64,000 bases of DNA, taken from contig CAWFGE010000012.1 of NCBI GenBank assembly GCA_963815195.1, forward strand, positions 256,001 to 320,000, in the 5' to 3' direction. The DNA comes from an uncultured Planctomycetaceae bacterium. Lineage in GTDB: Bacteria; Planctomycetota; Planctomycetia; Planctomycetales; Planctomycetaceae. Shown one piece after another: positions 12,214 to 26,857 of this stretch. The translations under genes and the position numbers were made by a program. The notes under the pieces are model-generated. The model saw only the letters and a program-made list of their open reading frames with translations, made no database searches and was not told where the DNA came from. The first letter of the stretch is position 1. Every line of letters starts with the position of its first letter.

Positions 12214-12582
12214 TTAACCGGCGCTCGGCAGCATGTCTTTCAGATTGTCCGGCCGGGGGAGTTCGAGTTCGAGAATCGCCAGACCCAGCGTTTTGCCTTG
12301 GCTGTCGATCCGGAGCGACCCGCTCGCACCGCCGGCGAGGACGTCGCGGAGCAAGAAGTTGTAGGCCCCAATGCCCGAAAGCGCAAACCGCTCCACCGAT
12401 TTCGGGCGCAAGGGCAGAAAGAACTCCGCCACGCGAACTTCCGTCAGCACCCGGCCGAGGTATTCAAACCCGGCCTCTGTGTAAGCGATCACGCCCACGT
12501 TGGCGTGGTTGCCTTTGTCGCCCGAACGGGCGTGGGCGATGTCTTTCAAGCGAATGCGGGCCGGGAATGTGGGATCGGTCAT
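12214..12582 (-). CDS. AtuA C-terminal-like (ferredoxin-fold) small protein
   Basis: IAHARSGDKGNHANVGVIA...LRIDSQGK; ATGA overlap with the upstream AtuA-family stop. Confidence 0.85.
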   Translation of the reverse strand: MTDPTFPARIRLKDIAHARSGDKGNHANVGVIAYTEAGFEYLGRVLTEVRVAEFFLPLRPKSVERFALSGIGAYNFLLRDVLAGGASGSLRIDSQGKTLGLAILELELPRPDNLKDMLPSAG

Positions 12583-13961
12583 GCCTGCCACTCCTTTGCG
12601 GATTGCACTTGGACGGTCGGGGCGACGCGGTCGCGGGCGATGCTCGTCGGCCAGAACGCGAGCACCGGGAAAGGCTTCGCGCGGGGTCCGGTATAACCCG
12701 TGACGCCCGGCGGTCCCGAGGTGACCAGAGGCGCGATGTCCCGCACCATGCGATCCAATGTTTCCCGCTTCGGATCGCGCGGAAATCCGCAGCACGACTT
12801 CGCCGGGACCAAACGCGTCGTCGGTTGTTCGCGGCCAAATGCCGGGAAGCGAATCGCCCGCTCCGAGGACTTCGTATTGGAATTGTGCCGGCGAGCAACC
12901 GGCCGATTGCAGCCGATCGAAAATCATCTCGCCAGAGGCTCTGGCTTTTCGCTCCGCGTGTCGTCCGCAGATCACCAGCATTGCGGCGACCGCATAGCCG
13001 TCGCGATACGCCAGGGAAACTTTGAACCGCTCTGGGGCCGATCGGCCCTTGGCTCCTTCCACCGTCACGCGATCCTGCTCCGACGGCGTCAAGCGGACGT
13101 TGGAAAAATTCGCGTCCACGTCGGGCGTCAGATAATGCTCCGGATCGCCGATCTCGTAGATCAATTGTTCGGAAAGCGTGCGGGTGCTCACCTCGCCATC
13201 GCTGCCGGGCGGTTTGGTGATCGCTACCTCGCCGGCTTCGCTGAGTTCCGCGATCGGATAGCCCACATTGGCGAGCGGCAGGTTGTCCGACCAATCCGAA
13301 AACATCCCGCCCGTGGCTTGGGCGCCGCATTCGATCAAATGCCCCGCCACGGTCGCCGCCGCCAATCGGTCCCAATCGTCCCAGGCCCAACCGAACTCCG
13401 CGACGGCCGGCCCCACGGTCAGCGAAGCATCGGCACACCGGCCCGTGATGACGATGCGGGCGTCTTGATTTAAGGCCTCCACAATTCCCGCCGCCCCCAG
13501 GTAAGCGTTGACGCTGACCATCTTCTCCGCACGCACGCCCAACGCTTCGCCGGTTTCGATGTGGGCAAACTCTTCGCCCCCGGCGGTCAATTCGCCAAAC
13601 CGCGAGAGCAAATCATCTCCCGTGACCATGCCGATGCGGACATCCGGCAAGCCGTTTTCGCTCAGAATCCGCGCGGCTTCTTTCGCGCAACGGGGAATAT
13701 TCATCCCGCCGGCGTTGGTGACGATTTTGAGCCGGGGCTGCGCCAGAGCGCGGGCATCAAGCTTTCGAGCGCGACGGGAAAATCCGTCACGAACCCGGCC
13801 TTTGGATCGCGGGACCGCTGATGGGCCAGGACGGAAAGCGTCAATTCCGCGAGGTATTCGAGCGTGAGATAATCCACCTCCGCCGCTTCCACGGTCCGCC
13901 GCGGCGCTTCGAGCCAATCCCCCCAAAACCCGGCCCCGTTCGCAATTCGAATCGTTGGCAT
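12579..13961 (-). CDS. Acyclic terpene utilization AtuA family protein (DUF1446); frameshifts near 13750 and 12780
   Basis: IRIANGAGFWGD, YLTLEYLAE, NAGG, NAYLG, ITGRCADA, GHLIECGAQATGG, EQLIYEI. Confidence 0.85.
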
Positions 13962-14042
13962 TTTGCTCTTTCCCAAAACCGAAGTCGCCCTTCTCTTCTC
14001 CGCCGCTGCCGTCTAAAGTACGATTTGCAGGACCGGCTGTCC

Positions 14043-14159
14043 ATGAGTGTGCCACTGGCCTTCACCATTTCGTATCCGAAACCTGATCGATTTCTGGAGG
14101 CACTCGCCCGAAAGGCATTGTCACACTTTAAGCACTGGCAAAGCCAGTGGCACACCATG
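14043..14159. repeat. REPIN-like inverted repeat
   Basis: gtgtgccactggc (14047-14059) and gccagtggcacac (14143-14155) are perfect inverses; internal cactggc-aaa-gccagtg hairpin. Confidence 0.65.
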
Positions 14160-15132: not shown

Positions 15133-15745
15133 TCAGCGTTCGTAGGTGCCGACGAGTTCTCCCTCGGCGAGGATGTGGCCGTTCATGGCTGCGCGAAGCT
15201 GCTGTTTCGTGAGGCCAGGTTCGAGATCGAGCGCTTCGTTGAGCGCATAGATCTTGAAGTGGTAATGGTGGACCCCGTGCCCCTTGGGAGGCGCGGGGCC
15301 GCCGAAGCCCGTCTTTTTGAAATCGTTCACGCCCTGCACCGCGTGGATAGGTTCGGAAAGCGTCTTGGCGTGCGGGAGATCCTGCGGAAGACCCTCCAGC
15401 TCGCCGGGCAATCCATAGATCACCCAATGCACCCACGGCTCGTCGCGCGGGGCGTCGGGGTCGTCCACAATCAGCGCCAACTGTTTGGTTCCCTCGGGCA
15501 CGTTCGCCCAATGGAGCGGGGGCGAGATGTCGTCCCCGTCGGCGGTGAATTTTGGGGATTTTCTTCTGCGGCCCAAACGCGGGGCTTGTGACTTGGATGG
15601 TCATCGGAACCTCCTTTTGGCTCTCCTGGGTTGCGGGCGATTTGGTGTCCGCGGGATCGGAATTCCCGCAGCCCGCCGCACTGCAAAGGATCAACACGGC
15701 CAACCCCCACGCCGGCCGGCTTGAACGAATACCACGACTCTTCAT
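15133..15745 (-). CDS. YbhB/YbcL (PEBP) family protein with lipoprotein-type signal; frameshift near 15553
   Basis: LILCSAAGC signal; SPPLHW, DDPDAP, WVHW, GPAPPKGHGVHHYHF. Confidence 0.88.
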
Positions 15746-15854
15746 GCGATCGATCCTCCTGACGGAACGTCCCCGACGAATTGGCTGCCACGCTCCAAAG
15801 TTCAGCAAAGCGCGCACCACCCAAAACTTGCTTCGGAGACGCACCCGCGGGTGA

Positions 15855-16391
15855 TCAGAGGTTGGGCGCGGGCGGGAAGTCGAGTTTCGTACCGTTGACA
15901 TGGTTGAACAGATTGGAATAAGTCGCCAGACCGATATACGCGATGGCCTCGGCGATCTGGCCGTCGGTGTAGCCCGCATCGCGGACGGCGGCGATTTCGG
16001 AATCGTCCACGAATCCGTGCGTCTCGATCACGCGCGTCACGAATTTGAGCAAGGCCTGGTGCTTTTCGGACTGGGCTTCAAACCGGCGGATGCTCAAGAT
16101 TTCGTCATCGCTCAGCCCGGCTTTCTTGGCGAGCAGCGTGTGCGCCGAAACGCAGTATTGGCAGTTGTTCCCCTGGCTCACACCGAGGTAGACGACTTCG
16201 CGGTCTTGCGGCGAGAGCTCGCCGTGGCCGAGCGCTCCGGACATGGACAGATACGCTTTCAACGCCGCCGGGCTGTTTCCCATGCCCTGGAAGATGTTGA
16301 TCACCTTGCCCATCTTTTTCGTCAAGTCGTCGTAGATTTCCTTGACCTGTCCGGTGGCGTCTTCGGGTTTGACGACATTCAATCGGGGCAT
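15855..16391 (-). CDS. AhpD/carboxymuconolactone decarboxylase family protein
   Basis: NNCQYCVSAH CxxC motif; GAGGAG RBS before ATG 16391. Confidence 0.9.
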   Translation of the reverse strand: MPRLNVVKPEDATGQVKEIYDDLTKKMGKVINIFQGMGNSPAALKAYLSMSGALGHGELSPQDREVVYLGVSQGNNCQYCVSAHTLLAKKAGLSDDEILSIRRFEAQSEKHQALLKFVTRVIETHGFVDDSEIAAVRDAGYTDGQIAEAIAYIGLATYSNLFNHVNGTKLDFPPAPNL

Positions 16392-16501
16392 GTTCGGCTC
16401 CTCAGCGGTTTGAGAGTTCATGGGGACACAACAGCCCGTATCCTATCCCGACAAGACGCAAGAGTTCAATAAAGGCGCATTGCACAAACGCAGGTGGGAC
16501 T

Positions 16502-16540
16502 TGGGTGGCACGCCCTTCGTTCCTCAGGGCGTGCCACCCA
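16502..16540. repeat. REP-like hairpin (GGGTGGC family)
   Basis: tgggtggcacgccct-loop-agggcgtgccaccca, 15-bp perfect stem; related copy at 61770-61803. Confidence 0.7.
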
Positions 16541-16616
16541 AGTCCGTACCGACTTCTGTGAAACACACACTCGTTGAGTTTGTGACCGACGTCCGCTGAC
16601 TTCGTGCGCGCGGCTC

Positions 16617-18272
16617 TCACGGGAACAGGCCGCGGGCGAGTTTGGCGGCGGCGACGCGTTCGATGCCTTCGATCATCGCGGCCGTGCGCATGTCGATCTT
16701 TTCCTCCTGGGCGCGGTTGAACGTGCGGTTGAACCCATCGGTAAGAATGTGCCGCAGCCGTTCGTTGACTTCGCTCAAGGTCCACATGTAGTTCTGGATG
16801 TCCTGGACCCATTCGAAATACGACACCGTCACCCCGCCCGCGTTGGCGAGGATGTCCGGCAGGATGAACACGCCTTTGCGGTTGAGCACTTCGTCGGCTT
16901 CCAGAGTCGTCGGGCCGTTGGCGCCTTCGGCGAGGATCTTGCAGTCGATGCGGTCCACGTTCTCCGCGGTGATCTGGCTTTGCAGGGCCGCGGGCACGAG
17001 CACATCGCAGGAGAGTTCCAGAAGCTCCGCGTTGGTGATCGCTTCGCCGTGGGGGCAGCCTTCGAGGAAGCGGTGCTCGCGGACATACTCCCGAAGCAGC
17101 GACACCGAAAGGCCCTTGGGGTTAAAGAGCCCGGTGGTCGCATCGCTGACGCCGATGATCCGCACGCCGTTTTCTTCAAGGAACTGGGCCACGTGGCTGC
17201 CGACGTTCCCGAAGCCTTGAATGACGGCCGTCGATTGGTTGAGGTTGATTTTCTCATGGCGGGCGGCTTCTTCGATGAGATACACCACGCCGCGCCCGGT
17301 GGCGGCTTCGCGGCCTTGGGCGCCGCCGAGGACCAAGGGTTTGCCCGTGACGACCGCCGGGACCGCGTAGCCGACCTGCTCGCTGTAGGTGTCCATGATC
17401 CAGGCCATCACGCGTTCGTTGGTGCCCATGTCCGGGGCGGGGATGTCTTTGTCCGGGCCGATCATCGTGCCGATCTCGGAAGCGAACCGGCGGGTGAGCC
17501 GCTGGAGTTCGTGGCTGGTGAGTCCGGTGGGATCGATCCGCACGCCGCCCTTCGCTCCGCCGAACGGGAGGTGCATCAGGGCGCACTTCCAGGTCATCCA
17601 CATGGCGAGCGCGGAGACTTCGCCCAGGCTCACGTCCTGGTGATAGCGGATCCCGCCTTTGGTCGGCCCCATCGTGAGCAGGTGCTGCACGCGGTAGCCG
17701 AAGACGGTCTCGACTTCCATGTATTTGTCCCGCCGGAAGGGAAACGCGGTGACCAGGGTCCGCTGCGGAAACAACAGCCGCTGGCGGATGTTGTCATCGA
17801 GTCCCATGAGCTGGGCCGCCTTGAGGAACTGCCGCTGCGCGAGGCGGAACATCGGCGAGTCCCACTCGGCGTCGCGGACGCGGGTGCGTTCCAAGGCGTA
17901 GCGGAGCGAACGGGCGAGCACCGAGGCGTTGAGCTGCGTCTTGACGAGGTAATCCTGGGCACCGGCTTCCACCGCCCGCGCGGCGAGCTTGATGTCATCG
18001 ACGCCGGTGACGATCACCACCGGCAAATGCGGCATATGGGCGCGGACGCGGATAAACGTTTCCAGGTCCTGGCTGTCGGGCAGCGTGAGATCCAAGAGCA
18101 CCAGCTCAATATCCCCCCGGTCCAGTCGCGAGAGGCCTTCGGACAACTGCCCGGCGGTTTGCAAATCAAACGCGGGCGCCCGCGAGCTGGCGAGCAGGTT
18201 GTCGATCAGCTTGACGTGGATGGGATTGTCTTCGATCAATAGCACGCGGATGTGCGTTGAGGCATCGTTCAT
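16617..18272 (-). CDS. Receiver (REC) domain fused to glutamate dehydrogenase (Glu/Leu/Phe/Val DH family), 551 aa
   Basis: REC: LLIEDN, LLDLTLPD, IVTG, DYLVK. GDH: GPTKGGIRY, MTWKCA, GGAKGG, DIPAPD, GREAATG, IQGFGNVG, NAGGVTVSYFEW. One continuous frame. Confidence 0.93.
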   Translation of the reverse strand: MNDASTHIRVLLIEDNPIHVKLIDNLLASSRAPAFDLQTAGQLSEGLSRLDRGDIELVLLDLTLPDSQDLETFIRVRAHMPHLPVVIVTGVDDIKLAARAVEAGAQDYLVKTQLNASVLARSLRYALERTRVRDAEWDSPMFRLAQRQFLKAAQLMGLDDNIRQRLLFPQRTLVTAFPFRRDKYMEVETVFGYRVQHLLTMGPTKGGIRYHQDVSLGEVSALAMWMTWKCALMHLPFGGAKGGVRIDPTGLTSHELQRLTRRFASEIGTMIGPDKDIPAPDMGTNERVMAWIMDTYSEQVGYAVPAVVTGKPLVLGGAQGREAATGRGVVYLIEEAARHEKINLNQSTAVIQGFGNVGSHVAQFLEENGVRIIGVSDATTGLFNPKGLSVSLLREYVREHRFLEGCPHGEAITNAELLELSCDVLVPAALQSQITAENVDRIDCKILAEGANGPTTLEADEVLNRKGVFILPDILANAGGVTVSYFEWVQDIQNYMWTLSEVNERLRHILTDGFNRTFNRAQEEKIDMRTAAMIEGIERVAAAKLARGLFP

Positions 18273-21200
18273 GAGGTTTCCTCCTGGAGGGCGTCGCTCT
18301 CGATCCGGCGGGTCAAAAGCGGGGTCAATCGGTCGAGTTCGGTTTCCAACTCTGTGCAGGCGGCCGGGGCCTCTTCGAGCCGGCCTTCCTTGGCGAGCGT
18401 CTCCAGATGGAGCGCCGCCGCGGTCGCTTTTTCGGCGGCGAAGATGGCGGCGGAGCCTTTGATGGTGTGGGCCGCCCGCCGCAAGGACTTTGCGTCCCCG
18501 GACGCGAGCGCGTCCTGGCATTCCTTGAGGAGCTTCGGCGTTTCCTCCAGGAACATCGCCGCCATGTCGCGAAGCGCATCGGAGGCGATCTCCGCTTGCC
18601 GAACGGCCTTGTCCCAATCCAAAACCTCGCGCGATTCCGCGGGCGGTTGCGGGGACGGCTTTTCGGCGTCTTGGGGTTTCTGTTTCGGTTCCATGGCGGG
18701 CAATTCCTCGAAAGGCGGGGCGGCGGGATGGGACAGGATTTCTTCGATGGAGGCGAACAACTCGCCGGCGCGGACGGGCTTGGAGACATAGCCGTCCATC
18801 CCGGCGTCGAGGCATTGCTCGCGGTCGCCTTTCATCGCGTGCGCGGTCATGGCGATGATGGGAATGTGATGCCCGCCGTCGTGCTCGTGCTCCCGGTGCC
18901 GGATGGTCTTGGTCGCCGAGAGCCCGTCCATTTCCGGCATTTGCACATCCATCAGAATCAAGTCGAAGGGATGCGATTCCCAAAGCCAAACGGCCTCCCG
19001 GCCGTTGTTCGCCACGGTGACGTGATGTCCGTGCGGCTCGAGCTGCGCGAGCGCGAGCTTTTGATTGACCAGGCTGTCCTCGGCGAGCAGGATTCTTAAA
19101 CGAGGCAGCCGGGCGGCGATTTCGTGGGCGGGGACATCGGACGCGGTCTCGCCCGTCGCGTCGGCCACGCCCAACGTCCTCGCGATGACGTTGAACAACT
19201 CCGATTGCTTGACTGGTTTCGTGAGATACGCCGCGATCCCCAAATCCTGGCAGCGGGAGAGTTCTTCCCGGCGGTCGTTGGAGGTGAGCATCATCGTGAT
19301 CGCGCTCCCTAATCCGGGATCGTGCTGGATGGCCTCGGCGACGCTGAAACCGTCAAGCCCCGGCATGTTCGCGTCGATCAGGATCAGATCGAACGCGTGG
19401 CCTTCATCCAGATGCTTGCGCATTTCGGGCAGGGCCTCTTCGCTGTGGGTAATTGCGACGGGACACATCCGCCAGTTGCGGAGCGTCTCTTCCAGGATGT
19501 CGCAGTTGGTGCGGTTGTCGTCGACGATCAGCACGCGCAAGCCTTCGAGCCGGCCGTCGGGACGGGGGCGTTTCTTCGGGAGTTGATCCGGAGCCGGGAC
19601 GCCGAACCGGACGGTGAAGTGGAACGTGCTGCCTTCGCCGACCTGGCTTTCGAGCCAGATGCGTCCGCCCATGAGTTCCACGAGGCGGGAGCAGATGGCG
19701 AGTCCCAGCCCCGTGCCGCCGTAGCGTCGGCTGATGGATTCGTCGGCCTGCTCGAAGGCTTGGAAGATTTGCTCTTGCTTGTTCTGAGGGATGCCGCAGC
19801 CGGTGTCGCGGACGGAAAAATGCAGCGTGATGTCTTTTTTCGAGCGGGCGTCCTGGACGGCTTCCAGCACGATCTCGCCGGTGTCGGTGAATTTGATCGC
19901 GTTGCCCACGAGGTTGACGAGAATCTGCCTTAAGCGAAAGCGGTCGCCGCCGACGAAATCGGGGACGTCCGATTCGACTTGCCAGGCGAGTTCGACACCT
20001 TTGCGGTGCGCCCGAAGCGCGAGGGACTTCATCGTGTCGCCGATGTTCTCCCGCAAATCGAAGGGGGCGTATTCCAGGTCGAACCGCCCCGCCTCGATTT
20101 TGGAGAAGTCGAGAATGTCGTTGATCACGTTGAGCAGCGAGTCGGCGGACTCCTGAACCATCGTCAGATGCTCGCGTTGGGTCGGGGTCAAATCGGTGTC
20201 CAAAACGAGTTCGGTCATGCCGATGACGGCGTTCATCGGCGTGCGGATTTCGTGGCTCATGTTGGCGAGGAAGCTGCTTTTCGCGCGGTTGGCGGCCTCG
20301 GCGGCTTCTTTGGCGGTTTCGAGTTCCTCTTTCGCGTGTTTTTCCTCGGTGATGTCATGCAGGAACGCGGCGAACAAAAATCCCGAAGCCTGCCGCACCG
20401 GCGAGATGGTGATTTCGATGGGAAACTCGCGCCCGTCGCGGTGCAGCGCGTTGAGTTCGAGCCGGCGGCTGAGCAGCGGCGCCTCGCCGCTCTCCAAAAA
20501 CCGCTCGATGCCGTGGCGGTGCGCATCGCGAAGCGCATGCGGAATGATCAATTCGGGCATGTCCCGCCCCACCGCTTCCGCCGCCGTCCAGCCGAACGTC
20601 GCCTCGGCCTGCCCGTTCCATTCCTGGATCGTGCTGGCTTCGTCGATGGCAATGAACGCCTCGTGCGCTGTCGCGAGGATCTCGCGGTTCTTTTCGTCGC
20701 GGGCCTTGATTTCCTCCTCGATCTTTTTGGCGGCCGTCACGTTCCGCAGCACGATCACGCCGCCGCGCAAATCGCCCCGGTCGTTTTTGAGCGGCGCTCC
20801 GGTAATGCTGATCCAAACATCGTCCGGCAGATTGGGATTGCGGAGGATGAGTTCCTGCCCGTAAATCGACTCGCCCCGCATGGCGCGGGCCAAAGGCAGA
20901 TTCTCCGGCGGATAAAGCGTCCCGCCGTCGGGCTCGTAGCAACCGTAAAACTGGGGCCAATCTTCGGGAGGCACATCCTCGGGCCCGATGCCCACGATCC
21001 CGCGGGCCGCGGGATTCCAGAGCAGAAACTTTCCGAATTGGTCCGCGACGATCACGCCGTCGTTCATGCTGTCCATGATGGATTGCAGAATGCGCGTCTG
21101 CCGACGGAGTTCTTTTTGGGCTTCGGTGAGTTGGGTGGTTCGCTGTTTGACGCGGTCCTCCAAGCGGTCGCGGGCCTCGGCGAGCTGCTCGGCCATGCGG

Positions 21201-22345
21201 TTGAACGCCGTCCCCAACAGGCCGATTTCATCCCGCGAGGTCACCGGCACGCGGGCATCCAGATCGCCTTGGGCAATGGTGGCGGCGGCTTCGGTCAGGC
21301 GGAAGATCGGCCGCGTCAACCGCCGGGCCAACACAAACGAAGCGATCGCCCCCAAAAGGACGAGGAGGCATTGCAGCCCGATCAGCGTGTTGCGGAGCCG
21401 GGTGACCGGGGCATAGGCTTCGTCCAAATCCATCTTGGCGACCAGGCCCCAGGGGGGATTCTTGTCCGGCTGATAGGAGACCGGCTGGTACGCGGCCAAC
21501 ACGTCGGTTCCATGATAATGCGTGACCTCGGCCCCTTGCTCGCCGTTCAAAGCCCGCGCCATTGGCGGAACATTCCACAGGGGCTCGCTCGAGCCCTTTT
21601 CCCCCGCGGACGAGAACAAAAAGTGGACCGCGTCGCCGCTCCGCCGGCCCACGCGGATCTCGCCGGTCTTCTCCAACCCCGTGCGGTCCTCGACTAAGCT
21701 CCAAAGCCGGGTCGCGTTGTGCTGGACCATCACCACGCCGAGCAAATGATTTTGCTCGCTGCGGATCGGCACCGCGGCATAGGCCAGCCAATTTCCGTCG
21801 ACTTTCTGCGGCACCCCGAGGTGCGGCCGGGTTCGTCCCGCGAGAAAATCCGGATCGTCGGCAAACGACCAGTCCAGATGCGCCGGCTCGGAGGCGGCGA
21901 TCACGTTGCCTTGCGGATTGGTCACCCAGATTTCGTGAATGTTGAGCGTGTTTTCTTGCGCATCCCGCAGAATCTGATCCGCGTTCTTGCGAAACTCCGT
22001 CGGCGTGCTCTTGCCGGTCGCATAATCCTGCAGGAGTTCCACCAGCCGGGTCCGCCCCGCGACCAAGGCCGCCCGTTCGAGTTGCTGATGGGCGTAGGAT
22101 TCCAATCGGGCCGAGCGTTCCGAAGCAATCAACTTCAGCCGATTGTGGATGTTGTCGTGGAGGATGTTTCGCGCGGTGACATACGCCAGGTGCCCCAGGA
22201 GGCCGGCCGTCAGAATCACCACCGTCGCCACGAACAACGTATTTCGCACCAACAGGGAGTGCGGCAGGCGAATGCGGTGTTGGGGCGCCGGGAATTCCGC
22301 GGAATTTGTCTCTGGTTCGTCTCGATCATGCGAGCTCGTCTGCAT
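18269..22345 (-). CDS. Hybrid sensor histidine kinase (periplasmic Cache-like, HAMP, 2 PAS, HisKA, HATPase, 2 REC, Hpt)
   Basis: Two TM helices; DEIGLLGTAFNRM; FLANMSHEIRTPMN; NLVGNAIKFT, DTGCGI, GTGLGLAI; LILIDANMP and LILMDVQMP; AHTIKGSA. Confidence 0.95.
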   Translation of the reverse strand: MQTSSHDRDEPETNSAEFPAPQHRIRLPHSLLVRNTLFVATVVILTAGLLGHLAYVTARNILHDNIHNRLKLIASERSARLESYAHQQLERAALVAGRTRLVELLQDYATGKSTPTEFRKNADQILRDAQENTLNIHEIWVTNPQGNVIAASEPAHLDWSFADDPDFLAGRTRPHLGVPQKVDGNWLAYAAVPIRSEQNHLLGVVMVQHNATRLWSLVEDRTGLEKTGEIRVGRRSGDAVHFLFSSAGEKGSSEPLWNVPPMARALNGEQGAEVTHYHGTDVLAAYQPVSYQPDKNPPWGLVAKMDLDEAYAPVTRLRNTLIGLQCLLVLLGAIASFVLARRLTRPIFRLTEAAATIAQGDLDARVPVTSRDEIGLLGTAFNRMAEQLAEARDRLEDRVKQRTTQLTEAQKELRRQTRILQSIMDSMNDGVIVADQFGKFLLWNPAARGIVGIGPEDVPPEDWPQFYGCYEPDGGTLYPPENLPLARAMRGESIYGQELILRNPNLPDDVWISITGAPLKNDRGDLRGGVIVLRNVTAAKKIEEEIKARDEKNREILATAHEAFIAIDEASTIQEWNGQAEATFGWTAAEAVGRDMPELIIPHALRDAHRHGIERFLESGEAPLLSRRLELNALHRDGREFPIEITISPVRQASGFLFAAFLHDITEEKHAKEELETAKEAAEAANRAKSSFLANMSHEIRTPMNAVIGMTELVLDTDLTPTQREHLTMVQESADSLLNVINDILDFSKIEAGRFDLEYAPFDLRENIGDTMKSLALRAHRKGVELAWQVESDVPDFVGGDRFRLRQILVNLVGNAIKFTDTGEIVLEAVQDARSKKDITLHFSVRDTGCGIPQNKQEQIFQAFEQADESISRRYGGTGLGLAICSRLVELMGGRIWLESQVGEGSTFHFTVRFGVPAPDQLPKKRPRPDGRLEGLRVLIVDDNRTNCDILEETLRNWRMCPVAITHSEEALPEMRKHLDEGHAFDLILIDANMPGLDGFSVAEAIQHDPGLGSAITMMLTSNDRREELSRCQDLGIAAYLTKPVKQSELFNVIARTLGVADATGETASDVPAHEIAARLPRLRILLAEDSLVNQKLALAQLEPHGHHVTVANNGREAVWLWESHPFDLILMDVQMPEMDGLSATKTIRHREHEHDGGHHIPIIAMTAHAMKGDREQCLDAGMDGYVSKPVRAGELFASIEEILSHPAAPPFEELPAMEPKQKPQDAEKPSPQPPAESREVLDWDKAVRQAEIASDALRDMAAMFLEETPKLLKECQDALASGDAKSLRRAAHTIKGSAAIFAAEKATAAALHLETLAKEGRLEEAPAACTELETELDRLTPLLTRRIESDALQEETS

Positions 22346-22366: not shown

Positions 22367-22506
22367 ACCGCCCTGAGTTTGAATTTTAGGACCCGCCGCC
22401 CCGGCCGGCAAGACCCTAACGAAAGTTCTCCAGGAGGCGGAAGTCCCGACCAGGGAAGGATTTCAGCTCAGCCGCCCGCGGCCGGAACCAGCGGGACTCA
22501 GGCGGT
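22367..22506 (-). ncRNA. Candidate structured RNA or leader upstream of the histidine kinase
   Basis: Nested stems accgcc(c)tgagt/actcaggcggt and cccgcUggUUccggccg/cggccggGGcGgcggg, with G-U pairs only on the minus strand. Confidence 0.3.
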
Positions 22507-24296
22507 CACTGCTCGGAGCGACGTTCGGACGGGCCGTGCTTCACCGAGAGATTCCGGGCCGTGTTGATTAAGGCCACGTGGGAAAACGCCTGGGGAAAAT
22601 TTCCGAGGAAACACTGCGTCTCCGGGTCGTATTCTTCCGACAAGAGGCCAACATCGTTCCGCAACGAGAGCAACCGCTCGAATAGTTCCCGGGCTTCGTC
22701 CCGCCGGCCCTGCATGGCGAGCGCGTCGGCGAGCCAGAACGTGCACATCAGAAACGTCCCCTCGCTGCCCGCGAGCCCGTCCACGCCCGACTCCGCATTG
22801 TAGCGAAGCACGAATCCGTCCCGCTTCAAATCCTCCTGAATCGCTTCGACCGTGCCTTGAATCCGCGGATCTTCCGGCGGCAGAAAGCCGACCATCGGCA
22901 ACACAAGCAGGCTCGCATCCAGATTGTGCGAGCCGTAAGACTGCGTGAAGGAATTCCTCGCCTTATTGAAGCCGTGCGCGCACACATCGTCGTGAATCTC
23001 CTTTCGCACCGTCCGCCATTTCTCCGCCGGGCCGTCCAGATGGAATTGCTCGACGCCTTTGATGGCCCGATCGAAGGCCACCCACGCCATGACTTTGGAA
23101 TAGGTAAACTGCCTCCGTTCCGAGCGGATTTCCCAGATGCCTTCGTCGGGCTCTTTCCAGACGGTCTCCAGGTGGTTCATCAGGACGCGCTGCATGTTCC
23201 AGACGTGCTCTTGGGGGGGCAGCCCGCGCTTCTGCGCCAGATGCAGCGTGTCCATCAATTCGCCGAACACGTCCAACTGGAGCTGCGAATGGGCCTGATT
23301 GCCAACGCGCACCGGCTTGGAATTTCCGTAACCGGAAAGCCAGGGGACTTGGAACTCCGGCAGCCAGCGCTCGCCCGCGACGCCGTACAACGGTTGAATC
23401 CGCGACGGCCGCCCGGCGACGGCCCGCATCAGCCAATCCCGCCAGGCCACTGCTTCCTCCGTGAACCCGGAGTCGAGCAAGGCATATAACGTCAAGGTGG
23501 CGTCCCGCAGCCAGCAGAAGCGGTAGTCCCAATTTCGTTCGCCGCCCAAATTCTCGGGGAGCGACGTGGTCAGGGCCGCGATCATTCCGCCCGTCGGCTG
23601 GTAAATCAAGGCTTTGAGCGTGATGAGCGAACGGACCACGGCATCCCGCCACGGGCCTTTGTAGTTGCATTGGCTGGCCCAGTCCTTCCACCAGTCTTCG
23701 GTGCTCCTGAGCAGTTTCAGCGGATCGGTCTTCTCCGGGGCCGGCGTATGGGATGGATACCACGTGAGGCTGAAAGATTTCCGCTCCCCCGCGCGAATTT
23801 CAAAATCGGCCCGCGTCCGGAAATCTTCGCCCCGCATCTCGACGTCTGAGTGGATGAGCATGGCATCGGGCCCGGCAATGGCAATCAGGCTGTCGTCAAT
23901 CCGCCGCACCCAAGGCGTCACCGTGCCGTAGTCCAGCCGGATGACAAGTTCCATCTCCAAGGGCACCGTGCCCTCGCGGCCTTCGATGATCCGCACCACG
24001 TCGGCGACTTCGACCTCGAGCGACATAAAATCGATGATGGCCACCGTCCCGCTGTCCGTTTCGAACTCGGTTTCCAGAACCAGCGTGTCGCCACGGTATT
24101 TGCGTTTCTGATTTCGGACCTTGCCTTTGGGGCGAATCCGCCAGCGGCCGTTCTCGGCGTCGCCCAACAGCGCCGCGAAGCACGCCCCGGAATCAAACCG
24201 GGGCAGACACAACCAGTCGATGGATCCGTCCCGCGAAACGAGCCCTCCGGTTTGCCCGTCTCCAATGATCGCATAGTCTTCGATGCGCGATTTCAT
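22506..24296 (-). CDS. Glycoside hydrolase family 15 (trehalase/glucoamylase-like)
   Basis: IEDYAIIGD, TTSLPE..GGERNWDYRFCWLRD, DEGIWE, GNFPQAFSH. Confidence 0.95.
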   Translation of the reverse strand: MKSRIEDYAIIGDGQTGGLVSRDGSIDWLCLPRFDSGACFAALLGDAENGRWRIRPKGKVRNQKRKYRGDTLVLETEFETDSGTVAIIDFMSLEVEVADVVRIIEGREGTVPLEMELVIRLDYGTVTPWVRRIDDSLIAIAGPDAMLIHSDVEMRGEDFRTRADFEIRAGERKSFSLTWYPSHTPAPEKTDPLKLLRSTEDWWKDWASQCNYKGPWRDAVVRSLITLKALIYQPTGGMIAALTTSLPENLGGERNWDYRFCWLRDATLTLYALLDSGFTEEAVAWRDWLMRAVAGRPSRIQPLYGVAGERWLPEFQVPWLSGYGNSKPVRVGNQAHSQLQLDVFGELMDTLHLAQKRGLPPQEHVWNMQRVLMNHLETVWKEPDEGIWEIRSERRQFTYSKVMAWVAFDRAIKGVEQFHLDGPAEKWRTVRKEIHDDVCAHGFNKARNSFTQSYGSHNLDASLLVLPMVGFLPPEDPRIQGTVEAIQEDLKRDGFVLRYNAESGVDGLAGSEGTFLMCTFWLADALAMQGRRDEARELFERLLSLRNDVGLLSEEYDPETQCFLGNFPQAFSHVALINTARNLSVKHGPSERRSEQ

Positions 24297-24690: not shown

Positions 24691-25068
24691 ATGACGCCCA
24701 TCGGACATAAACGCTGGACCATCGCGGAGGGCTACATCCCGGGCTGGAGCCACGGCCCGGAACCGCAAATGACCAGCCACGAAACGGCGTGCATCTTGAA
24801 TGCGGGCGATGAAGACGCCGAGGTGCGAATGTTCGTGTTCTTCAGCGACCGCGATCCCGCCGGGCCGTACAAGTTCACGGTGCCGGCTCAGCGGACGAAG
24901 CACGTTCGGTTCAACGAACTCAAGGACCCCGAACCGATCCCCAAGGACACCGACTACGCGAGCGTGATCGAGTCGAACGTGCCGATCGTGGTGCAGCATT
25001 CGCGGCTCGATTCGCGCCAGGCGGAGAACGCCCTCGTCAGCACGATCGCCTTCGCCGAGCGGGATTGA
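24691..25068 (+). CDS. Anabaena sensory rhodopsin transducer (ASRT) family protein
   Basis: IGHKRWTIAEGYIP...SHETACILN...RTKHVRFNEL.DPEPIP...VVQHSRLDSRQ. Confidence 0.88.
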   Translation: MTPIGHKRWTIAEGYIPGWSHGPEPQMTSHETACILNAGDEDAEVRMFVFFSDRDPAGPYKFTVPAQRTKHVRFNELKDPEPIPKDTDYASVIESNVPIVVQHSRLDSRQAENALVSTIAFAERD

Positions 25069-25114
25069 AGCCCCATTCACACACAAACCTGAAAACGAAC
25101 GGAGTGAAACTCTC

Positions 25115-25574
25115 ATGGAAACCACCTACCAAATGCCCCCCACCACAAGGCGGGTTGAAGAACATACCTCGGACGAAATCAACGAGCGGATTCGGCGGGA
25201 CACCGATGAACGGATTGCGGTGTACTTCGCGGCGGGCCGCGCGGCGATCGAACGCGCGGCTCGAGCAGCTCGACCACGAATGGGACATCGAGCGGGTCTT
25301 GGAAGCGAACGCCGCGTCGGTCTCGCTGGCGGGGTTCGTCTTGGGAGCGACGTTGAGCCGCAAATTTCTCGCGCTGCCTGCCGTGGTGTCGGGTTTTCTC
25401 TTGCAGCATGCGATCCAAGGCTGGTGCCCGCCGGTGCCGTTCTTCCGCCGCCGGGGCTTTCGCACCGCGCGGGAAATCGAGGAAGAACGCATCGCGCTCA
25501 AGGCGTTGCGCGAGGACTTCGACGGCATTTCCCAAAAAAGCGTGCCGGAGATTATGGAGGCGGTCCGCCGGTAA
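25115..25574 (+). CDS. DUF2892/YgaP-like membrane protein; frameshift near 25255
   Basis: RVEEHT..EINERI, then in the second frame EWDIERVLEANA...FLLQHAIQGWCPP..FFRRRGFRT. Confidence 0.8.
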
Positions 25575-25747
25575 GAGCCCGCGGGAATGAATTTCGGCGA
25601 ACAACTCGGTCCTGGAAAAACCGGGAGTGCGACGCCCTCAGTCACACTCAGGCTCGTGCCATCCATGACGAGACGGGCGGGATCTGTTTGCGAACGCCGG
25701 CAGTTCACCGGGGGGGACCGTTGAGGCCGGACCAGAGAGCAAGCCCC

Positions 25748-26857
25748 ATGTTGCACACAAACATCGACAAACTCGAAGTCACCGCCTACCAGGTGCCCAC
25801 CGATCAACCGGAATCGGATGGAACCTTGAAGTGGGATTCCACGACGATGGTCCTGGTGACGGTGTCCGCGGGCGGCGAGCGCGGGTTGGGTTATACCTAC
25901 TCGCAGACCGCGGCCGCCCGGCTGATCGCCGACAAGTTCCGCGATCAAATCGTCGGCGAGGACCCGCTGGAAGTCACACGGCTTAGCGAAAACTGTTATC
26001 GGACAGCCCGCAACCTGGGCCGGCCGGGGATCGTGGCCAGCGCCATCTCGGCGGTCGATGCGGCTTTGTGGGACCTCAAAGCCCGGCTGCTGGACTTGCC
26101 CTTGGTCCGCCTGCTCGGCCAGGTGCGGGATGAAATCGACATCTACGGCAGCGGCGGCTTTACGTCGTACTCCATCGAGCAGTTCCGGGAGCAATTGGGC
26201 GGCTGGGTGGAACAGGGAATCCCCCGCGTCAAAATGAAGATCGGCCGCGATCCCCAACACGACGTGCACCGCGTCTCCGAAGCCCGCAAAGCAATCGGCG
26301 CGAAGGCCGAACTCTTTGTGGATGCCAATGGAGCCTACGATCGCAAGCAGGCTTTGGCCAAGGCGGAAGACTTTGCGGGATTTGGGGTCAGTTGGTTCGA
26401 GGAGCCGGTGAGTTCGGACGACCTCGCGGGGCTGCGCTTGCTGCGGGACCGCGCACCGGCGGGCATGGACATCACGTCGGGCGAGTACGGCGACGACCGG
26501 TTTTATTTCAAACGGATGCTGGACGCCGGAGCCGTCGATGTGCTCCAGCCGGACGCCACGCGGTGCGGCGGCGTGACGGGGTTCCTCGCCGCGGCGGAAT
26601 TGTGCCGAGCCCAGCCGCTGCCGCTCTCGGCCCACACCGCGCCGTCGCTGCATCGGCATCTGTGCTGCGCGGCGATGCCCGCCCGGCATATCGAGTATTT
26701 CCACGATCACGTCCGCATCGAGCAGATGTTCTTCGACGGAGCAGCCAAGCAAGTCGGCGGCAAGCTGGGTCCCGATCCGTCAAGACCGGGTTGGGGACTG
26801 GAACTCAAACAACCCGACGCGGACAAGTACGCCGTCTGGCGAAACACCGGAGAATGA
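25748..26857 (+). CDS. Mandelate racemase/muconate lactonizing enzyme family (enolase superfamily)
   Basis: VDAALWDL, KMK, VDANG, WFEEP, GEY, QPD..RCGG. Confidence 0.92.
   Translation: MLHTNIDKLEVTAYQVPTDQPESDGTLKWDSTTMVLVTVSAGGERGLGYTYSQTAAARLIADKFRDQIVGEDPLEVTRLSENCYRTARNLGRPGIVASAISAVDAALWDLKARLLDLPLVRLLGQVRDEIDIYGSGGFTSYSIEQFREQLGGWVEQGIPRVKMKIGRDPQHDVHRVSEARKAIGAKAELFVDANGAYDRKQALAKAEDFAGFGVSWFEEPVSSDDLAGLRLLRDRAPAGMDITSGEYGDDRFYFKRMLDAGAVDVLQPDATRCGGVTGFLAAAELCRAQPLPLSAHTAPSLHRHLCCAAMPARHIEYFHDHVRIEQMFFDGAAKQVGGKLGPDPSRPGWGLELKQPDADKYAVWRNTGE

Follow-up and report, generated by a model that had tools for sequence, protein, structure and literature searches.

Why should a glutamate dehydrogenase (GDH) carry the receiver of a two-component system? 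The question is raised by a gene in a 64,000-nucleotide stretch (the window) of contig CAWFGE010000012.1 from an uncultured Planctomycetaceae bacterium. A stop-free open reading frame (ORF) on its minus strand, 16617-18272, translates into a protein of 551 amino acids (P0001) in which a receiver (REC) is joined to a GDH, and the gene overlaps the end of a hybrid kinase gene. The answer favored here, at a probability of about 0.5, is that this REC-GDH is a phosphorylation-coupled trigger enzyme of the nicotinamide adenine dinucleotide (NAD) type, whose conformation would tune catalysis and would also serve a second, non-catalytic output. What is new, and what changes the likely mechanism, is that relatives appear to have lost catalysis at least four times with the phospho-site and the kinase kept. 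If the reading is true, His-Asp signaling would be wired directly onto a carbon–nitrogen branch point.

Identification of a receiver–dehydrogenase fusion

An earlier note, made from the sequence alone, had described a complete receiver continuing in frame into a full GDH, and this description held. Pfam placed Response_reg (PF00072) at residues 10-113 (E = 2e-17), ELFV_dehydrog_N at 169-297 and ELFV_dehydrog at 316-548. The receiver has the acidic pair, phospho-Asp, Thr/Ser and Lys of a response regulator with enzymatic output (E14, D15, D61 in the motif LLDLTLPD, T89 and K111). The lysines that the note had called glutamate-specific, K205 (TKGG), K229 (TWK) and K241 (GAKGG), are all in the translation with S484 (VTVSYFEW) and D281. 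Mapped by motif, these cover K89, K113, D165, S380 and the catalytic Lys of the C. symbiosum enzyme, residues whose roles are described in an excerpt of bioRxiv 2024.12.26.630402 and in part of PMC7326016. With PF02812 and PF00208 both above cut-off and a GDH fold in the model, the protein belongs to the small ELFV GDHs.

An assembly artefact as the source of the fusion was ruled out by homologs. The note had allowed that these might always be separate genes; REC plus both GDH domains were found in 119 of the 120 best homolog clusters, and the spacing from K111 to Q170 is exactly 60 residues in 119/119 aligned homologs. The fusion is therefore genuine, the proof being homology and not reads. 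Read mapping near 17880, which the note had also proposed, was answered in part: among contigs of the four DNA runs compared, one of 460 bases from X1, possibly the source sample, matches 17947-18406 with zero differences, and none bridges the REC/GDH junction over 17734-17895.

In the alignment of best homolog clusters, D61 is kept in 118/119, T/S89 and K111 in 119/119, and E136 and W137, which follow the receiver, are invariant (119/119). K205, K229, K241 and D281 are present in 120/120 top homologs. The family forms one branch relative to six ordinary GDHs (SH-aLRT, the Shimodaira–Hasegawa-like approximate likelihood ratio test, 99), and three receiver-less members nest inside it. REC-GDH is thus a real family of single origin, patchy across phyla.

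The closest named homologs of the window copy are from Planctomycetaceae. Within that family the fusion was detected in 10/151 genomes (a frameshift interrupts one of these and a contig end truncates another), with the GDH part alone in three more; counts were 18/301 for the class and 6/401 for the phylum. Elsewhere it occurs in 19/342 Halomonadaceae genomes, in 1/251 of the order of Halomonas, in 18/113 of the class of Lujinxingia and on nine rhizobial plasmid records. The highest frequency, 31/33, was seen in a phylum whose records are labeled Latescibacteria or Gemmatimonadota. Besides REC-GDH, the source genome (94.6% complete) encodes a single further GDH, which is a GdhA of the E. coli type and carries S-D-S; a large GDH was not detected at this completeness.

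The architecture has been catalogued. P2CS (2009) lists GDH, EC 1.4.1.3, as a "probable" two-component enzyme (PMC2716373, Table 1), and fusions of REC to metabolic enzymes are treated as a recognised class in part of PMC5847659, which the note, with its REC outputs of DNA-binding or second-messenger type, had not mentioned. A targeted literature search found no study of a REC-GDH fusion, its scope leaving aside the main censuses of REC outputs and their supplements, which could list the architecture. The note knew of no characterised system resembling this one, and within that scope no characterization was found here either: REC-GDH is real, catalogued and apparently uncharacterised.

The adjacent hybrid kinase and its conservation

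The REC-GDH start codon overlaps the kinase stop as ATGA (18269-18272), as the note had seen, and an AGGAGG sequence lies eight bases upstream of the start (18280-18285), so that the two genes are likely to be translationally coupled. The note's account of a Cache-HAMP-PAS-PAS kinase ending in an Hpt domain was borne out by Pfam, the dCache_1 match being below cut-off. The full order is membrane helix, dCache, membrane helix, HAMP, PAS, PAS, HisKA, HATPase, REC, REC and Hpt. With a HisKA His, HATPase, REC Asp and Hpt His in one chain, the protein is an unorthodox hybrid kinase, and H1293 of its Hpt domain is the likely phosphoryl donor to D61. Its top NCBIfam matches were BarA (PRK11107, 576 bits) and TorS (509 bits); identity with BarA/GacS or TorS was rejected, both scores being below the cut-offs (890 and 676.5 bits). 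A dCache-type sensor is common to four planctomycete partner kinases. For its ligand, no solved relative was found at E 1 and no assignable motif in five aligned sensors.

Kinase synteny was assessed in 95 loci, the remainder of 107 wide loci after removal of 12 that duplicated others over residues 140-300. Where receiver and enzyme are intact, a same-strand kinase or Hpt gene lies within 1 kb in 57 of 67 scorable loci, across phyla, although these loci are far from independent. The ten loci without one are all from Planctomycetia, and six further loci had flanks that were too short. Most lineages have the kinase downstream of REC-GDH and some have it upstream, and the Hpt domain is either fused or encoded by a separate adjacent gene. 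Distances between kinase cores correlated with those between REC-GDH proteins (Spearman 0.73, 27 pairs, 0/2000 permutations, kin not being independent). A kinase encoded alongside in 57/67 loci and co-inherited to this degree has the marks of a cognate partner. In addition, 30 of 31 partner kinase cores matched the window kinase first within the source genome, often by small margins.

The inputs of the partner kinases vary widely: dCache-HAMP-PAS-PAS, CHASE, multi-membrane, soluble PAS (a PAS_7 pair), GAF-PAS, V4R and REC-REC were all seen, and sensor domains are swapped between lineages. The extracytoplasmic ligand proposed in the note consequently survives for the window lineage, with its dCache domain, and not for the family, since other lineages carry soluble or differing inputs. 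No DNA-binding regulator of its own was found in the REC-GDH/kinase cassette.

Three loci were unusual. In one (L131:1700-2049, genome G513) the genes for a V4R-type kinase and REC-GDH are separated by a stand-alone Hpt gene that runs in the opposite direction. In another (L002:1573-9644) REC-GDH ends a chemosensory cluster: genes for CheA-like and CheB proteins precede that of the partner kinase, which carries two receivers at its N terminus. On an Ensifer adhaerens plasmid (L133:1-14656) the pair follows genes for glutamate mutase, methylaspartate ammonia-lyase, a CoA-transferase, a CoA-lyase and fumarate hydratase; this methylaspartate glutamate-catabolism neighborhood is a single case.

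Apparent loss of catalysis with retention of receiver and kinase

Searches with 50%-identity representatives, followed by a profile search, identified 13 clusters lacking one or more of K205, K229, K241 and D281. All 13 keep E14-D15-D61-T89-K111. In each of the 163 clusters scored as intact the four catalytic residues are present, and in nearly all of them the phospho-site is too. The 13 are regarded as catalysis-dead because of the roles described for the missing residues in the two sources given above.

Dead clusters fall at four or more places in a tree of REC plus the N-helix, and a single origin was rejected (p-AU, the approximately unbiased test, 4e-48; at least four changes) with 23 near-redundant intact rows left out. 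A full-length tree had been set aside for this purpose, its long branches drawing the dead copies together. Catalysis thus appears to have been lost at least four times while the phospho-site stayed.

The kinase follows the same pattern. It is kept at all eight readable dead-copy loci (three in Halomonadaceae, five in the class of Lujinxingia), whereas none of the seven readable loci with a degenerate (four) or missing (three) receiver has an adjacent kinase; one more had short flanks. The kinase is therefore tied to the receiver and not to catalysis.

The dead copies are under purifying selection and are not decaying. Among three Halomonadaceae dead copies the ratio of nonsynonymous to synonymous substitution rates (dN/dS) was 0.04-0.07 for REC, 0-0.10 for residues 136-200, 0.16-0.21 for the rest of GDH and 0.17-0.32 for the kinase; the rest of GDH gave 0.04-0.23 in intact pairs. 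Comparison of Halomonadaceae dead with intact copies gave 0.58-0.73, indicating an earlier relaxed phase. In a Bradymonadia pair with D281G (and P278A) the values were 0.13 for REC, 0 for residues 136-200, 0.14 for GDH and 0.21 for the kinase. Of the 15 members of one dead cluster, 14 are full length, and several come from cultured Halomonas/Bisbaumannia. Overall, dead copies keep 0.93 of the conserved columns of REC plus α5, 0.70 of those of the N-helix and 0.49 of those of the active-site half.

In the Halomonadaceae dead copies (L306-L308) the K205 position holds Leu and that of S484 Ala, so that a changed ligand is possible; a hydrophobic pocket of this kind resembles that of leucine dehydrogenases. 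A proposal that catalysis was lost when GdhA was gained was uninformative, coming from one lineage: GdhA-type genes are present in 3/3 dead-copy and 6/16 intact Halomonadaceae genomes.

Structural models and the linker

The AlphaFold model of REC-GDH had a mean pLDDT (predicted local distance difference test) of 80.5 and a pTM (predicted template modeling score) of 0.77. In it α5 of the receiver is one helix, residues 116-137, running up to the E-W motif and leading directly into GDH helices 140-156 and 160-167. The best fold match was T. maritima GDH. A two-copy model of residues 5-340 passed, scoring 0.46 against 0.00 for the best control; the mark used was reached by 20/30 known pairs and 1/23 single chains, contacts agreed at 67% or more and pLDDT was at least 77. 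Its predicted contacts at 161-178, 187-189 and 266-270 are those of the known GDH two-fold, and it probably passes by likeness to solved GDH dimers. REC–REC contacts were not among the confident ones and give no evidence either way.

Residues specific to the family, defined against an outgroup of 97 ordinary GDHs, are concentrated at 137-204, where they overlap the predicted two-fold interface; R245, R520 and E535 belong to them as well. In Arabidopsis GDH1 the N-terminal helix, exposed at the surface, bends as the enzyme opens and closes, according to part of PMC7326016. These models would be compatible with a signal path by which D61 influences domain closure and assembly and which, by reciprocity, would run in both directions. 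The leucine pocket between subunits of Thermus and bovine GDH corresponds to R262, D294 and R547 (window 16620-17500), residues found unchanged in 120/120 intact homologs and eroded in Halomonadaceae dead copies.

An S-D-hydrophobic motif marks NAD use in the same part of PMC7326016, a source that itself allows for other determinants. The family has S-D-V/A/M/Q/L in 152/163 clusters, which together with GFGNVG suggests NAD dependence and hence a catabolic role.

Just past the E-W-D-S-P linker, M141 (17850-17852) shows 95% conservation among intact copies and is absent from most dead ones, and frames starting at M141 occur at two loci (L111 and L241). An internal start there, giving receiver-less subunits, is conceivable. 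The first of these loci belongs to the same-genus genome G070 (L111:3567-9318), where the kinase has an in-frame stop (residue 485) and the receiver a one-base frameshift, and where the GDH part is open as a 411-residue frame from M141, 96% identical. The signaling layer may be being lost in this genome, or else these are assembly errors.

Proposed mechanism and alternatives

Domain order, residues, family, gene pairing, sensor swapping and the repeated loss of catalytic residues with receiver and kinase kept are observed; phosphotransfer, NAD preference, catabolic direction, the allosteric route and any second output, whatever its form, we infer. The kinase would relay phosphate from His698 to a receiver Asp, on to Hpt His1293 and finally to Asp61 of the fusion. 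Phosphorylated D61 would act through the predicted rigid α5-Glu-Trp helix on the GDH N-terminal helices and the dimer interface. The receiver state would thereby tune glutamate oxidation and would also gate a catalysis-independent output, either contact with another protein or feedback to the relay. The second output is postulated because dead relatives keep both receiver and kinase.

Several observations weigh against this proposal. A partner for the second output was not found, there being no conserved third gene beside the pair. The dead copies are a minority (13 clusters to 163), the queries that recovered them contained REC and were biased towards intact receivers, and their behavior need not hold for the intact window copy. 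Ligand sensing is not universal, because the nucleotide-binding domain is gone from the most decayed dead proteins. Of the copies with genome context, the two that have decayed furthest come from G1434 and G1435, each of which has another member of the family, and this fits a regulatory subunit. On the kinase side, monophyly of the partner kinases relative to source-genome paralogs was not shown (three changes), and Hpt domains alone often match another paralog first. The ten intact Planctomycetia copies without an adjacent kinase keep a conserved REC, so the neighbor is not obligatory. In these kinase-less copies the receiver dN/dS is 0.02, and the five such genomes examined have 4-15 Hpt matches elsewhere; service in trans is therefore possible.

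An extended form of the trigger-enzyme proposal, possible but held tentatively, is a two-way hub. The glutamate/2-oxoglutarate/NAD(H) state of the GDH and the phosphorylation of the receiver would set each other, with conversion to a signaling pseudo-enzyme occurring at least four times and the catalytic Asp lost first.

Rather unlikely, though the best placed of the alternatives, is a strict form of the earlier note's view, in which aspartyl phosphorylation would switch flux and nothing else. On this account dead copies would be regulatory subunits relaying the signal to active GDH in mixed hexamers. Thermus thermophilus GdhA, a catalytically inactive regulatory subunit of the GdhB hetero-hexamer according to part of PMC9570180, is a precedent that fits the Bradymonadia and G1435 and poorly fits Halomonadaceae. 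In G1435 one copy is intact and one dead, and a separate kinase accompanies each of them (the second copy in G1434 is cut off), and the Bradymonadia-type dead-copy genomes examined contain two or three ordinary intact GDHs. The full retention of catalytic residues in intact clusters, with the phospho-site nearly always kept, speaks for a pure switch, as does genome G778, of the Latescibacteria/Gemmatimonadota-labeled phylum, where REC-GDH is the only GDH detected. The dimer-interface segment is also the best-kept part of dead GDH. Nevertheless, no ordinary GDH of the same class, available for regulation in trans, was found in the three Halomonadaceae dead-copy genomes; their other GDHs, an E. 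coli-type GdhA (about 450 residues, 32-36% identical to the family), a 358-residue relative and a large GDH, all fall outside the class of the dead copy. G1403, G1415 and G1416 hold one family member only, and the interface residues of the family differ from those of ordinary GDHs, which argues against mixing. A flux switch may thus be one output, but as the sole output it is at odds with the purifying selection that maintains kinase and receiver in catalytically dead lineages.

Signal flow in the opposite direction is less probable still. The GDH would sense glutamate, 2-oxoglutarate or NAD(H), and the protein would be a metabolite-gated phosphate sink tuning Hpt output to other regulators, with catalysis uncontrolled. 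The mildest dead forms (P0309, L374 and L376) have the pattern of a binder, losing just the general acid/base D281 (with P278A) and keeping K205, K229, K241, R321 and S484. D281G recurs in at least three lineages, and the missing DNA-binding regulator of the cassette fits as well. However, targets in trans are required, the strongly decayed copies are without substrate and nucleotide sites, and receiver-less members persist as plain enzymes, so that catalysis itself is selected.

That REC-GDH is an old fusion carried along with independent domains is very improbable: either half can decay or vanish, as in G070 with its broken kinase and receiver and open GDH part, but the linker length is fixed in 119/119 homologs, E136-W137 is invariant, the GDH surface by the linker is remodeled and purifying selection has preserved the GDH scaffold of dead copies, which are not truncated after REC.

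For the trigger-enzyme proposal, the natural series of intact, receiver-less and catalysis-dead proteins offers ready-made controls for the enzyme as output versus sensor, and hosts include the cultured, tractable Sinorhizobium fredii NGR234, Halomonas, Gimesia and Sphingobium (source names). Repeated conversion of enzyme to pseudo-enzyme with the kinase kept would point to a further output of a widespread module.

Feature coordinates and neighboring genes

Table 1. Features of the REC-GDH/kinase cassette in the window.
Feature	Position	Strand	Basis
REC-GDH gene, 551 residues	16617..18272	-	ORF, Pfam domains, homolog family
Receiver domain, residues 10-113; D61 at 18090-18092	17934..18245	-	PF00072; conservation 118-119/119
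Extended α5 and E136-W137-D-S-P linker, residues 116-140	17853..17927	-	AlphaFold helix 116-137; E136/W137 119/119
GDH N-terminal helices and first β-hairpin, residues 140-196	17685..17855	-	Family-specific columns; predicted two-fold dimer interface
Small hexameric-type GDH, residues 141-551	16620..17852	-	Motifs (PMC7326016), homology, fold match
GDH residue codons	K205 17658-17660; K229 17586-17588; K241 17550-17552; D281 17430-17432; S484 16821-16823	-	
NAD-type GFGNVG and S-D-A in the GDH part	S-D-A 17139-17147	-	Motif reading from PMC7326016
ATGA stop/start overlap and AGGAGG, ribosome-binding-site-like, within kinase 3' end	18269..18285	-	Sequence
Unorthodox hybrid kinase, 1358 residues (P0002)	18269..22345	-	ORF, Pfam, motif positions
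Kinase phospho-residues	H698 (HisKA) 20252-20254; D991 (REC) 19373-19375; D1133 (REC) 18947-18949	-	
Hpt domain, residues 1260-1340; H1293 at 18467-18469	18326..18568	-	PF01627 and motif position
dCache_1-like sensor, residues 61-303	21437..22165	-	Below Pfam cut-off, E 4e-8

The pair is flanked by co-oriented genes, a carboxymuconolactone-decarboxylase/AhpD-like gene downstream (15855-16421) and a GH15 trehalase-like gene upstream (22506-24296). None of five window neighbors recurs at the modules of eight relatives, except GH15 in the same-genus genome G070. A promoter and terminator scan of 16380-16700 found nothing. Window ORFs at 12214-14055, 15133-15979 and 25065-25857, which we take to be an AtuA-like terpene-utilisation gene, a YbhB-like gene and a small membrane protein, look frameshifted, a hint of indel errors in the assembly. 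A paralogous hybrid kinase of the source genome (C8:625926-629240) is split over two frames, HisKA-HATPase-REC and REC-Hpt, probably by a frameshift.

Comparison with known systems

The closest solved protein is T. maritima GDH (1b26; E = 2.5e-136, 52% identical, TM 0.89 over the target). REC-GDH has in common with the small hexameric GDHs (1b26, Thermus GdhB 3aoe, B. subtilis RocG-GudB and plant GDH1) the catalytic residues and the two-fold β-strand interface. It differs from them in its own N-helix and first-hairpin residues and in the receiver, which is absent from solved members and, within the searches made, from described ones.

The B. subtilis enzymes RocG and GudB are trigger enzymes that bind GltC, according to part of PMC6794564. 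They belong to the same GDH class and have a second, protein-binding regulatory role, as is proposed for REC-GDH, but have no phosphorylation input, and their partner GltC is known, whereas no partner was found for REC-GDH.

Thermus GdhA resembles the dead copies as an inactive subunit of GDH fold with a regulatory role, and the leucine-pocket residues of GdhA/GdhB map to R262, D294 and R547. However, GdhA lacks a receiver and is found beside its partner, whereas dead REC-GDH copies lie with a kinase, those of Halomonadaceae with no same-class partner found. The dead relatives have lost catalytic residues, as such a subunit would; a same-class active partner is present only in Bradymonadia. 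For the window copy a GdhA-type subunit was rejected, its catalytic residues being intact and the only other GDH being of GdhA type.

The window kinase shares the HisKA-HATPase-REC-Hpt core with BarA/GacS, TorS and ArcB. It differs in having two receivers, in its adjacent regulator, which is REC-GDH and not a transcription factor, and in belonging to a set in which sensors are swapped between lineages.

CheB and PleD/WspR are response regulators with enzymatic output. In common with them, REC-GDH has an N-terminal receiver with an intact site joined to an enzyme and encoded beside a kinase. Its output is by contrast a central metabolic enzyme, which is repeatedly dead in copies that retain the kinase, a combination not expected of a simple regulator with enzymatic output.

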